From contig CATOCA020000001.1 of assembly GCA_951406725.2 (NCBI GenBank), positions 2,914,001-2,978,000 on the forward strand: a stretch of DNA of 64,000 nucleotides, given 5' to 3'. The position numbers were made by a program, and so were the translations under genes. Of the stretch, positions 397 to 59,924 are shown piece after piece. The stretch's first letter is position 1. Each line of letters starts with the position of its first letter. This DNA comes from Octopus vulgaris (Eukaryota). The notes beneath the pieces were generated by a model. The model made no database searches, was not told the DNA's origin, and saw only the letters and a list, made by a program, of their open reading frames with translations.

Positions 397-3300
397 CTGC
401 AATGGAAAATTTAACATGAAATTTAAGGGAATTACAGTTGCTCTGAGCTGAAATATTAGATGCAAAAGTGATGGCGGTGTTGGTAGTGGTATTGGTGTTG
501 GTTGTGGTGGTGGTGGTGGTGGTGGTGGTGGTGGTTGTGATAGTGGTGGTGTTGTGATGTTGGTATTGTTGATGTAGTAGTAGTAGTAGTAGTAGTAGTA
601 GTAGTAGTAGTAGTAGTAGTAGTAGTAGTAGTAGAAATAGCAGTAGCAGCAGCAGTTGCTGTTGTAAATAAATAGTTTGGACGTGCTGGCTGATTTGAGA
701 ACCATGTGCCATGAAGTGTTAGAAACACATATGGAGAGCGATATTCTCTTACGCTATCAAAAATATTAAAAATATCGGACATTTTCGAAATATTATCCCC
801 CTTGAGGCAAGCCAGGCATGACTTTAACACCGATCTATTAATGATTTCGCTCGAAAGTGGTTCACCATGAACTTTCCATGATATAATAGGAAAGAAATAC
901 TTTCCGACTGAGATATGTGCAAATTATGGACATGTATAACAGCGACATACAAGAAGTCGTTCAAAGAGGTAGATGCTGATTAAAGAAGGTTGAAATGAGT
1001 TTGATTTTCTGGATAAGAAATGCTTAATTTGGGAAAAAATTTGAGCTGGTCATTTATGAGAATGTAACTGAGAATCAAAAGTCTTGGTCAATATCACCAG
1101 AAATAACAATTTGTAAAGACTTTTATATTTATATATGACCCATGATACTGATACAGACTCGAATCGCAACTCGCAATTCAAACGTCAACATACTGCCTAC
1201 CCCTCTATTATCTCCCTTTTCACTACAATACCAGGAATCCTTCGGAAAATTCCAAGGACCGCGACAGATAGAATTAGCACTAGGCTTTCAAAGAATAACT
1301 CCTGGGATCGATTTCTTCGACTAACACTCTTCAAGGTGGTGCTCCAGCGTGGCCACAGTGAAGTGCCTGTAACAAGTAAAAATGCGTCTGTCAGACCTAA
1401 ACGCACAATGTAATAGCACGCCTTTCATGCAAGTCTGAGGAAGTTCCTCTCCAATGCCTAAAACCGCAAATATTGCGTAATTTTGCTTTTAGAAGTTTAG
1501 AACTGGCGATGCAAATGGAAATGTTACGGAAACATTTGTAACTTATAATTAAAGACTATTACAGGCTTTTCTTTCTATTCTTGTTTTCATTGGATTCCGA
1601 TGGACTCTCAGGTCGTTAGACGACGTATGACGGTTCGACAATTTCTTACCGAACAACGGGAGCCACACGTCAGATGTCGAAATGACCGTAGAGCAAGGTG
1701 AAATGAAATGCGTTGCTCAAGAACACAACGCCCAAGAACAATCGATCTGAGAATCGATACCACGATCTCACAATCGTGAGTGCAACACCCTAACCACTAA
1801 GCCATGCGCCTTCATTGGATTATATATATACATACTTTGTTCCTCTTGTATATCTCTTAGACATTGGTTAAAGCGTATAAGCTGTGTGTGTATCTATCGA
1901 TCCTAATTCAAAAATTAACATGATCACTTCAAACAAAATGAAATTCTGCTGAGGAAAATTATTTGCAGCATTAAATAATTTTCTTGTTTGAATTAAAGCA
2001 AGTACTGGAATTGTGTGAATTATTCTGCCCAGTAGAGTCTGCATCTTCTACTTCTATACAAAATTAGAAGAAAACATTTTTGCCCTTGGTTAATTGGTAT
2101 AATTAAAAAGAAAATGAGCAAAGACAAACATTCCGTAGGGACAAGAAACGGAAAAGCGTAAAATAAAATGCTGATTTATTGAAATTATCCAAGCTTTGAG
2201 AAAATGTAAATAAATAGTTGTATGTATGAGAGAGAGAGAGAGAGAGAGAGAGAGGGAGAGTCTGTGTGCGTGTGTGTGTTCATGCGCGCGCGTGCGTGCG
2301 TGTCCTATGGTATCATCCACTGTGGTTGATGATGATGACAACGACGAAGAGGATGGTAATGGTGATTGATGAAGCTAATTATGACGGTAATGGTGATAAA
2401 ATTAATAAGAAACACGATACTTACGTTCATCAAGCAATTTCAAGTGAAGTTTCTGAACTCCTATGTTAAGCAATGCCTGGGATTTGTTCAAAACTTGGGA
2501 GATATTGCGCCGCAGTTGACTTTCAGTCATTTCGCTAAATACTGTACAGTAAATAGCAAATATTTTAATTCTGTTTGAGCTGAAATAATAATAAATACAT
2601 ACATGTACGTCGGTATGTATATGTGTATGTAGATAGCTAGCTAGCTAGATACATACATCGATATATATATATATATATATATATATATATATATATATAT
2701 TCAAAATGTGACCTCGTGTGTACCGTTTGCGATTTTGTTTCCTCCGTCTTCCCTTTTCTGGAACTTTCCTTTTCCTATGTTTCTGACGAAGAGCTCCGCT
2801 CGAAACGTAAAACCCTCCTTCTTCCCTTCCTTCCTGAACCTCCAATAATAATATATTTGTTCCACGTCCTCGCGTTGTTGTGTTTTCTCTTTGTGTTTTC
2901 ATGTTTGGATGAACTATATATATATATATATATATATTATATATATATATATATATATATATATACACACACACTCGTTTAAAAGCCGCCCTGTCGATCC
3001 TTGGGCCCAACAATGACACTTCATGCATTGAGTACATATTAAATCTTTTTAAACTTGACCGATATTTTTCAAGCAATGAACAACTTATTGCAAAGTTGCA
3101 GGATAAACAACATCTTTTGTCTTCCCGTTCAGGGGTCAATGCAATATTTTCTGTCTAACCTCCTTCTTTCTCTCTCTCCCTCTTTCTCTTTCTGTTGACT
3201 ATCACCAGCGCCACTACCGTTGCTACCTCAACTGCCATACACACATCATTCAGACTTCTGACGCCACCACCATCAATATATTTGACTTCGTCACTTTCCC

Positions 3301-6300
3301 CTCCACCACCATCACCACAGTCTTTCACATCGCTTTCTTTCACTGACTGCCCCGGCTACCGCCACCACCACCATAGAGATAGATAAATAGAAAGATAGGT
3401 AGATAGATAGATATAGACCAACAGACAGACAGACAGATCGATAGATAGATAGATAGATAGATAGATAGATAGATACATAGATAGATACATACATAGATAG
3501 ATAGATAGATAGATAGATAGATAGATAGATAGATAGGTAGATAGATAGATAGATAGATAGATAGATAGATAGATAGATAGATAGATAGATAGATAGATAG
3601 ATAGATAGATAGATAGATAGATAGATAGATAGATAGATCGATAGATCGATAGATAGATAGATAGATAGATAGATAGATAGATAGATAGATAGATAGAGGG
3701 ATAGATAGATAGACAGACAGACAGGATAGACAGACAGACAGACAGACAGACAGACAGACAGATAGATAGATAGATAGATAGATAGATAGATAGATAGATA
3801 GATAGATAGATAGATAGATAGATAGATAGATAAAGGGATGTGGAGGGATTTCTTTTGAATTTTAAATGTCTTTTACCATTTATTTAGTTAGTTCTTTACC
3901 ATTGTATAGCCACTGGCATGAGACATGAGTTCAAGGGTGGTGGCCTCTTTTAGGTTGGGGAAAATAATGAAAAACAGGATGCGGTGCGGTCACCACTAAA
4001 ACGATAGTATTCAGTATGTCAGCTGCAGGAATTTCCGTCAAAGAGACAAAGTTAAACAAAGCTGTACTTCTTCTCCCTCTTTCTCTCTCTTTTGTTATTA
4101 CTCCCACTGCCACCATCAACATTACTACTTTTAATAAAACATCAACGCTCCCTAAATTTCTTTGTCTCTCTCTCTCTCCCTCTCTTTTTATTTCTCTCTC
4201 TGTCTTCACCATCGCCCTCACCGTCTCTATGTCTACTATTACTCTCACTGTTTCATGAGGAATAGTAGGAGTGTCATTGAATAGTGAGAGAGGGGTCTAA
4301 GTGTGACACACTGACACACAGAAATTAGTTTTCGCAATTATTATATTATATATATACTTATATGATTAGTTAAAACAAAAATCACCGGAATTTTTGTAGA
4401 CCAAGTTAATCTAACTGGTTTAAAGATAATTTTGTTCTAATACCAGTAATCTAAATTGCACCTTTTCAATAAAACTGACCATTGACTGACCAGTTAAACT
4501 TCCATTTACCGTTAATGGATTCCAATGTATCAATACTGATGCGTATAAAACATAATTCCATCACTTTAGTATGGCTGCTATCATATCCTTGTTAATTAAG
4601 GCGGCAAAGTGGCAGAGACGTTAGCCCGCCGGGCGAAATACTTCGTGGAGACGCAATGGCTCAATAGTTAGGGCAGCTGACTCGTGATCATAGGATCACG
4701 GTTTCGATTCCCAGACCGGGTGTTGTGAGTGTTTACTGAACGAAAACACCTAAAGCTCCTCGAGGTTCCGGCAGTGGGTGTTGGTGAGCACTGCTGTACT
4801 CTTTCAACACAAATTTCTCACTTCCGGTTTTTGTTGTATTTGTATTTCAAAGGGCCAGCCTTGACACACACTGAATCTTGCTGAATCTCCCCGAGAACTA
4901 CATTAAGAGTACACATGTCTGTGGGGTGCTCAGCCACTTGCAAATTAATTTCACGAGCAGGATGTTCCGTTGATTGGATCAACTGGAACCCTCATCGTCG
5001 TAACCGACGGAGTGCCATAAAATATACATATAGATTTCACAAATGACATCCAAAGACTCTCTCTATAGAAGACTAATAGTGCTAAAAAAATCAAACATGG
5101 GCTCCGGTGTCTATAGAGGGGGATTTTTTCACAAGGTAAAGAAAGGCTTAAAGAGGAATCAAGTTGATTGGATAAACAAATTAGACTCACCAAATATATT
5201 CTTTTCTACTCTAGGCACAAGGCACGAAATTTTGGGGGAGGAGCTAGTCGATTACATCGACCCCATTGTTTAACTGGTACTTAATTTATCGATCCCCGAA
5301 AGGATGAAAGGAAAAGTCGACCCCGGCGGAATTTGAACTCAGAATGTAAAGACATGAAATACTAATTTCTTTACTACCCAAAAGGGGCTAAACACAGAGG
5401 GGACGAACAAGAACAGACAAACGGATTAAGTCGATTATTTCGACCCCATTGCGTAACTGGTACTTACTTAATCGACCTTGAAAGGATGAAAGGCAAAGTC
5501 TACCTCGGCGGAATTTGAACTCAGAACGTAACGGCAGACGAAATACCACGAGGCAGTTCGCCCGACGTGCTAACGATTGAGCCAGTTCGCCGCCCTGACA
5601 CATCAAATATGTGAAATATATTCAATACATTAAATACAAAATATGAATATATGTATACACGTGAAACGAGGGAGAGCAAAATATATTTGTATTAAAGTAA
5701 AGAATGCCATCGAAGACAGAATATTAGGTAATATTTTTTATCTGATTTTGAAAACTTCAATAAATTAATTTTTTGTTTCAATTATTTTTAGATTCAAATA
5801 TAGCTCAGGATTGGATTATCATAGGATTATCATAAGATTCAAATATAGCTCGGGATTGGATTATCATAGCTAAGATATAGGGCATTCAGTATGGTTGAAA
5901 ACAGAATTAGTGAAGAAGGCTAGAACTACAAGCGGGTTAATAAAAGTTGGCCTTAAGAATATATTCGTCCAGTACCGTGGCTTGCCCTCTTTAGCATGTA
6001 AGAAATCCACATGGTGGGATTCTCAACGTATATAAACTTTTATACACACTTGATATATATATATATATATATATATATATATATATATAAATTTATAAAT
6101 GAGGGTGAAAAATTGATATTAATTTAATGATACCATTAATTTAACACCGAGTGGCTTAGCACAAAAAACTACGGAGAAAATACAAATTTATACATTAATT
6201 ATTAGATCGTTACCACTATGTAGATAACTCTAGTGCTAAAAATAGCTCCGATAGTATAGCCACAGTAAAAGATGTTTCTAATTAGAAATAACATACATTT

Positions 6301-59873: not shown

Positions 59874-59924
59874 AGCTTCTACAGGACTAGTACTGTTTCA
59901 TTCAAGAGAAATCTTCAGGAAGCT
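59874..59924 (-). ncRNA. Type I hammerhead ribozyme next to (TA)n
   Basis: AGCTTC-CTGAAGA-TTTC tctt GAAT-GAAAC-AGTACTAGTCCT-GTA-GAAGCT; 6-bp stem I, near-palindromic stem III. Confidence 0.78.

Follow-up and report, generated by a model that had tools for sequence, protein, structure and literature searches.

Hammerhead-bearing insertions at TA tracts in the Octopus vulgaris genome: ends of Penelope-like elements and short units without open reading frames

Hammerhead motifs of the window

The 64,000-nucleotide stretch of the Octopus vulgaris genome studied here (assembly GCA_951406725.2, contig CATOCA020000001.1, positions 2,914,001 to 2,978,000; hereafter the window) carries insertions with hammerhead ribozyme motifs at (TA)n tracts. 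They belong to nine families, A (with a subfamily A2) to I. We conclude, with a probability of roughly 0.8, that three of these families (D, F and H) are the ends of Penelope-like elements with an open reading frame (ORF), that five (B, C, E, G and I) are ORF-less units likely mobilised by Penelope-like enzymes, and that A is probably the truncated end of a longer element.

The window was scanned with a type I hammerhead descriptor (CUGANGA, stem II, GAAA, self-complementary stem III, UH, stem I). Nine motifs with a strict core were identified, at 2783+, 6409-, 7064+, 7520-, 7525+, 9843-, 10560+, 49033- and 59918-, whereas 100 dinucleotide block shuffles gave 0.04 on average and never more than 1. 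Relaxed cores added four motifs with changed cores, at 9464+, 11010-, 13571- and 57790+, for a total of 13. Every motif has a conserved core, three helices and an open stem I, the features of a minimal type I hammerhead. A first-pass annotation of this DNA had proposed at least seven families and about 12 motifs of this type; each position it listed does hold a type I fold, 9464+ is additional, and the counts rise to nine and 13. The palindromic stem III that it described is built into the descriptor and occurs in all nine families, in each of which it is predicted to favour a self-duplex (-1.7 to -15.2 kcal/mol) over a hairpin (none possible, or -1.4 to +6.0 kcal/mol). In the motif pairs 6409/7064, 7520/7525 and 9843/10560, each pair belongs to a single insertion, and its two members form the arms of an inverted repeat. 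Because they sit on opposite strands, the members of a pair could not serve as mutual dimer partners within one transcript, and this role was ruled out for them. Other CUGANGA sites (e.g. 42175, 51500, 19513) formed no fold and were discarded, as were weak U3-A8 matches at 40464 and 49815, which lie in a duplicated segment and score within reach of the shuffles.

Several changed cores are properties of whole families. The E core is U3-A8 in 30 of 30 copies, the G core has U3 in 30 of 30 copies and G8-A9 in 27, and U4C with a GUU site is common to 14 exact matches of subfamily A2. Family-level variation, rather than the single-copy decay that had been supposed, thus accounts for the cores at 11010 and 13571 and for the U3 of 57790. 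The window G copy has an additional A9G change, and U4 is altered in the window I copy and its paralogues, most other I copies having a canonical core. Both U3-A8 and U10.1.U11.1 are natural variants on record in the available text of PMC4209133 and PMC3088659. An abundant A-related family outside the window (seen in L014, upstream of the A copy there; 8 matches in a 600-kb sample) has an A6U core and any base at position 7, with intact stems.

Over all retrieved loci the descriptor matched 517 times, in 41 clusters with differing stems; 38 were retained, three small non-C3 clusters being dropped. A splice-donor-like GUAAGU lies in stem-loop II of 6 of the 38 clusters, several of them related, compared with 0.28 in shuffles. 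It is found at 7089-7094 of the window (B), in the stem II loop of family I, and at L076, L134, L183 and L014. Assembled contigs, which are not RNA, showed no joints when aligned on a B dimer, an uninformative result.

The stems also covary between related families. Young families are nearly invariant, with the motif identical in 30 of 30 D copies and 25 of 25 H copies. Among eight D/F relatives, 92.8% of 152 cells pair, compared with 37-57% for slid partners; 7 of 19 pairs changed on both sides, and the covariation score was reached in 0 of 500 shuffles. Since these sequences are related and mostly collected by homology (six by homology, two by descriptor or by eye), the shuffle count is no probability and the significance is inflated.

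Families that end coding elements

D, F and H are the pseudo-long terminal repeat (pLTR) 3' ends of ORF-bearing Penelope-like elements. The loci analysed per family are best matches; a first look at the genome gives some 800-2600 candidates per family, a figure that should not be taken for a copy number. H is a young autonomous element at 59858..64000 on the minus strand; it extends beyond the window and has an inverted arm at its far end. The C-terminal part of its ORF (63056-64000, minus strand; frame changes near 63721) comprises the end of the reverse transcriptase (RT), a CxCx5C linker and a GIY-YIG domain, and 150 of 150 scored matches to it show at least 95% identity. The hammerhead (59874-59924) lies about 3.1 kb downstream of the ORF, beyond a 3' untranslated region (UTR; 59930-63055, about 3 kb) that is mostly TA/TG/CA microsatellite-like. 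This UTR is conserved between copies, so much apparent microsatellite in the window is element sequence. Of 78 motif copies, 19 have the GIY-YIG ORF some 3 kb to their 5' side. In longer H loci the motif recurs some 3 kb 3' of the ORF, immediately before the following ORF and, in inverted orientation, at the far end; tandem periods are about 5.2-5.7 kb, and locus L061 holds an intact 713-aa ORF. The proposed element size of 200-500 bp therefore fails for H, which is the end of a multi-kb element.

Family D occupies 9702..10849 as two 5'-truncated 3' ends of an autonomous element, head to head: an inverted arm up to 10359 (hammerhead 9767-9846, minus strand) and a direct arm from 10357 (hammerhead 10557-10636, plus strand) with a tail of about 150 nt, the arms being about 660 and 500 bp long. 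Elsewhere D has an 895-aa ORF in a 3.62-kb tandem array, and an ORF lies upstream in 21 of 54 motif copies. Family F (48779..49408, minus strand) is what remains, after 5' truncation, of the 3' UTR of a coding element and begins some 150 nt past the ORF end; its hammerhead (48956-49038) has a 14-bp stem II, and 5 of 32 motif copies show GIY-YIG similarity some 520 nt further upstream. The association with Penelope-like ORFs that the first-pass annotation expected was thus found for three families, and its description of all the insertions as non-autonomous mini-elements holds for B, C, E, G and I and not for these three, nor simply for A, which extends 5'.

H and D each have a single ORF with an RT followed by a C-terminal GIY-YIG domain, including YRDD and VY..Y[I/V]G motifs. 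The RWK-like motif is present in them as RWR and RWL, and DKT was found in D and at L065 and L061. H has the CxCx5C linker together with CxxC and CxH, and no CCHH was seen by eye; D, 38% identical to H, has CxxC and CxH, and no CxCx5C linker was found in it. Look-alikes of the H and D proteins in a protein atlas include GIY-YIG and RVT_1 clusters. These motifs, together with by-eye block likeness to published Hydra-clade RTs, place H putatively in the Hydra clade of Penelope-like elements and suggest that D is Hydra-like. Next to the D array, at L167:6919-7839(-), lies a fragment that belongs to another Penelope-like clade and has CxxC in its endonuclease.

Family A is represented by a 5'-truncated copy at 2701..2914 on the plus strand, with (TA)n on both sides. 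Its hammerhead (2779-2813, core 2783) has an extra nucleotide after A9, a 4-nt palindromic stem III and a predicted cut after 2809. The A2 copy lies at 10884..11100 on the minus strand (hammerhead 10980-11014, with the subfamily-wide U4C and GUU site). A has a fixed 3' end and no repeat unit; longer copies run at least 430 nt further 5', are CA-rich and resemble the UTRs of D, F and H in this extension. An apparent 1.1-kb A repeat at C14 was rejected as a local duplication that includes flanking sequence. We saw no upstream inverted arm (0 of 30 copies), no second 3' end, and no ORF upstream in 12 longer copies. A is probably the truncated end of a longer element.

ORF-less units, TA sites and genome-wide load

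The remaining five families are built differently. B forms a composite insertion at 6080..7278 on both strands, with tailed minus-strand arms (6080-6803; hammerhead 6340-6414, core 6409-) and a plus arm (6809-7278; hammerhead 7059-7133, core 7064+); U.U is found at 10.1-11.1 in B. C is a head-to-head insertion at 7294..7842 with hammerheads at 7461-7524(-) and 7521-7584(+) and a tail of about 85 nt on the right arm only. I lies at 9388..9680 on the plus strand (hammerhead 9458-9516). E occupies 13318..13766, with a minus arm that holds the U3-A8 hammerhead (13536-13577) and a short plus arm (13589-13766) without a core. G lies at 57593..57991 on the plus strand (hammerhead 57784-57842, U3.G8 family core).

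Each of these families has a defined unit length: about 497 bp (B), 512 bp (C), 481 bp (G) and 546 bp (I), and 362 bp for E. Direct tandem copies were found at 11/30 B, 8/27 C, 25/30 E, 14/30 G and 4/26 I loci, and inverted upstream arms at 15/30, 22/27, 23/30, 15/30 and 7/26 loci, respectively (three C loci and four I loci that could not be oriented were dropped). Two discrete 3' ends, 70-150 nt apart, occur in B, C, G and I, and likewise in D and H. At many dispersed loci the units read from the tail directly into the next unit with a fixed period, and 30 E copies spread over several chromosomes are about 98% alike. The longest ATG frame in the natural copies tested was 25-70 codons. An upstream ORF was found in 0/40 B, 0/81 C, 0/71 E, 0/48 G and 0/15 I motif copies, using three natural Penelope-like proteins as probes, with most loci reaching only 1.5 kb upstream. 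The ORF-less tandem arrays, the same inverted arm and, in most families, the one-sided tail make B, C, E, G and I look retrozyme-like, and their sequence architecture indicates that they are likely mobilised by the enzymes of Penelope-like elements.

A comparison of the 3' ends of these units with those of D, F and H revealed similarity solely between B and C and between D and F; the I sequence used for it did not represent a true tail. The B, C and G tails (L186, L147, L274) have a loose terminal motif in common, which hints at a common autonomous partner.

All nine families lie at TA tracts. A TA or TACA run was found within 170 nt of the query 3' end in 225 of 258 loci, the window and duplicates included, and A has TA within 40 nt on the 5' side in 20 of 30 copies. 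The preference recurs in a genome sample of 60 evenly spaced 10-kb stretches from contigs C1-C15 only, where (TA)5 lies within 200 nt downstream of 12 of 16 motifs and upstream of 5 of 16, against a background of 15.4%. SINE-like (short interspersed element-like) controls have (TA)5 within 150 nt downstream in 4/98, 21/67 and 1/22 cases. Paralogues of the window furnish empty sites. In L299, L300 and L301 the sequence passes from 9701 directly to about 10850, or D is missing; in two of them, L299 and L300, the (TA)n is seen to be unbroken. L300 also has none of B, C and a mariner element, and about 100 nt of TA connect 6097 with 9163 there. Conversely, the tract at 7843..7870 is the empty site of a further hammerhead-bearing insertion found in the C30 paralogue. 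The empty paralogous sites with (TA)n support targeting, as the first-pass annotation had proposed. Overlap of the junctions with TA averages 2.3-6.6 nt, compared with 0.8-1.1 nt in the null (100 of 172 loci anchored, six families), and suggests priming by annealing. This differs from the anole element, for which a non-homologous start of insertion is described in the available text of PMC11167929.

The same sample contained 16 strict motifs in 599.8 kb, compared with 4 in 10 shuffles. The load is thus about 26 motifs per Mb, or about 73,000 in the 2.80-Gb assembly (Poisson range 43,000-121,000). The very large ribozyme load forecast from the window is supported, and extrapolation from the window itself would overstate it about fivefold: with nine strict motifs, where 1.7 are expected, the window has about five times the genome average and is a nest.

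Other features of the window include a mariner-type transposon at 7872-9165 that sits at a TA tract and whose transposase (Pfam Transposase_1) is broken, and the 3' part of a non-LTR element at 53000-54600 (zf-RVT match) flanked by (AAT)n tracts. On either side of the G copy lies the same SINE-like fragment of about 97 bp, repeated in direct orientation (57470-57566, 57986-58082). Positions 1-11600 and 47270-50660 are segmental duplications of 93-99% identity with C30:15.47 Mb, C30:18.85 Mb and other C31 sites, and the C31 and C30 copies may be partly allelic.

Mechanism, alternatives and related systems

In the architecture observed, most families have two 3' ends, inverted arms stand head to head, 5' ends vary, units recur in tandem, (TA)n sites are found empty, and junctions overlap with TA over a few nucleotides. 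A mechanism that would produce it begins with nicking of (TA)n by the GIY-YIG domain, as in known Penelope-like biology. Downstream of the hammerhead, the RT would then use either of two internal start sites, as the two 3' ends are explained in the available text of PMC11167929, and the nicked TA end would probably anneal to a UA patch for priming. Early termination and strand switching would leave hammerhead-bearing stubs. Since the new ends would keep TA flanks, later elements could insert beside earlier ones, and nests would accumulate. In multimeric transcripts two hammerheads may pair via the palindromic stem III and cut, and the resulting unit-length or circular RNA would be the template for the short units.

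Several observations weigh against parts of our interpretation. Some retrieved loci are segmental duplicates, above all in F. In a Pfam search neither the H nor the D ORF was named RT or GIY-YIG, and a PDB search of the H ORF returned no relevant family. The TA association is not unique to these elements, as one SINE-like control reaches 21/67. No autonomous partner with the 3' end of B, C, E, G or I was found, within the probe and reach limits given above. With respect to catalysis, 8 of 9 Xenopus retrozyme dimers did not cleave and one did (10.64898/2026.07.22.740005), minimal hammerheads, dimers included, cleave weakly (PMC4209133), and hammerhead mutants leave in vitro insertion unimpaired (PMC11167929), as reported in the available portions of these sources. 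Finally, abundant subfamilies with U4C or A6U cores indicate that catalysis may be dispensable.

These points bear unequally on the alternatives. A reading of the motifs as folds that arose by chance in AT-rich inverted repeats or miniature inverted-repeat transposable elements could appeal to the four insertions that are inverted repeats and to an Rfam scan of the window, which gave no hammerhead family among 136 matches with E<=1 (its microRNA matches are microsatellites or the C palindrome). The idea is refuted by the nine motifs set against 0.04 in shuffles, by fixed 3' ends combined with variable 5' ends and by the ORF links. It is very improbable that the (TA)n tracts are made by the elements as slippage tails, or merely mark sites of survival, without targeting. 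The TA bias is indeed stronger 3' than 5' (12/16 and 5/16), the genome has 1.2 (TA)5 tracts per kb, and the empty sites of the paralogues may stem from deletion between two TA tracts; this account is nonetheless opposed by the unbroken (TA)n in paralogues that lack D or the B/C block and by the 5' TA of family A. A broader alternative holds that all nine families are truncated pLTRs, the short arrays arising from local DNA duplication or more-than-unit reverse transcription, with no self-propagating small element. It is true of D, F and H and probably of A, and stubs dominate regardless, as a Penelope-like ORF match was found in only 1 of the 60 sampled stretches against 16 motifs. Extended to all nine families it is improbable, because the B, C, E, G and I tails enter the next unit at dispersed loci with a fixed period and never an ORF, and because the E copies are so alike on several chromosomes.

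A more serious alternative, doubtful in our view, concerns catalysis only and is compatible with the retroelement identity of the families. The short units would be mobilised as proposed here, and their hammerheads would be inert passengers inherited from pLTRs. The high-copy subfamilies with U4C, A6U or U3.G8 cores fit this account, as does in vitro insertion independent of hammerhead cleavage in the accessible part of PMC11167929, where the anole ribozyme is also stated to need protein. Against it, the core is kept while the stems differ in about 38 clusters, compensatory pairs are found, and the U3-A8 double change is fixed in E; these observations argue for selection on the fold, at least historically.

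Our assignment of D, F and H to coding elements and of the five short units to Penelope-like mobilisation agrees in many respects with described systems. Craig et al. 2021 (PMC8557442), in the parts available, had already published a Hydra clade of C-terminal endonuclease-positive (EN+) Penelope-like elements with (TA)n targeting and hammerheads, many with a U.U closing stem II, and its supplement lists an octopus member, Hydra-1_Obim, with a (TA)n preference. The octopus elements are like that clade, as described there, in RW[K/R/L], DKT, CxCx5C (in H), CxxC, CxH, absence of CCHH, (TA)n insertion, palindromic stem III, hammerheads that often have a U.U closing stem II, an inverted 5'-truncated arm and a one-sided tail. 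They differ in that H (5.2-5.7 kb) and D (3.6 kb) are longer than the usual <3 kb reported there, that D has long inserts and lacks the CxCx5C linker, and that the octopus hammerheads differ in sequence from that of Hydra-1_Obim. The insertion architecture of EN+ Penelope-like elements is matched in hammerhead pLTR, 5' truncation, inverted 5' arm, optional tail and (TA)n, except that A lacks the arm; the octopus tails of 70-150 nt compare with 30-40 nt in the reports available for Penelope-like elements. Similarly, published minimal hammerheads have the short stem I, extra nucleotide between 9 and 10.1, palindromic stem III and U3-A8 variant seen here, and occur as opposite-strand pairs 100-700 bp apart, in many families per genome and mostly as single truncated copies. 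The octopus estimate of about 7x10^4 motifs, however, compares with a published 2,000-9,000, and several octopus stems II are much longer.

The five short families resemble non-LTR retrozymes, which are proposed to depend on Penelope-like elements in the available text of Cervera and De la Pena (2020, PMC7229834) and Li et al. (preprint 10.64898/2026.07.22.740005). Units of both kinds are low in GC, lack an ORF, measure a few hundred bp, stand in tandem and contain a single type I hammerhead. Unlike retrozymes, the octopus units have hammerhead folds that look like the minimal pLTR type, and we have not seen the combination of inverted arm, tail and TA target described for retrozymes in the accessible text of these sources. 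Non-autonomous Chlamys elements such as MRC1 are also non-coding Penelope-like derivatives with pLTRs and head-to-tail multicopy insertions, although Chlamys elements mostly lack canonical hammerheads, according to the same portions of PMC8557442. Derivatives of the MRC1 type there resemble their autonomous partners at the 3' end, whereas no such likeness was found for the octopus units. We tentatively consider it possible that dozens of ORF-less ribozyme units ride on Hydra-clade enzymes, with replication through circular RNAs that dimer cleavage would release and with insertion primed by TA microhomology.

It was already published that pLTRs contain hammerheads, that the Hydra clade targets (TA)n and that retrozymes derive from Penelope elements. 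A literature search of incomplete coverage returned no account of such ORF-less hammerhead units in octopuses, and the word ribozyme is absent from the main text, as available, of a recent octopus repeat annotation (PMC13282606). The new observation is that autonomous families (H, D) and ORF-less units (E, C), all of them very young, occur together and show the same insertion fingerprint, and the ORF-less units that carry this Penelope fingerprint are the most interesting part of the nest. Their coexistence makes both trans-mobilisation and the role of the hammerhead testable in one system. If the short units do ride on Hydra-clade enzymes in the way tentatively suggested above, the high-copy U3.G8, U4C and A6U cores would serve as natural variants for testing, and the inverted arms and tails would reveal directly from the genome which machinery moves animal retrozymes. 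Together, the results suggest that part of the unclassified short repeats of the octopus genome is Penelope-derived.

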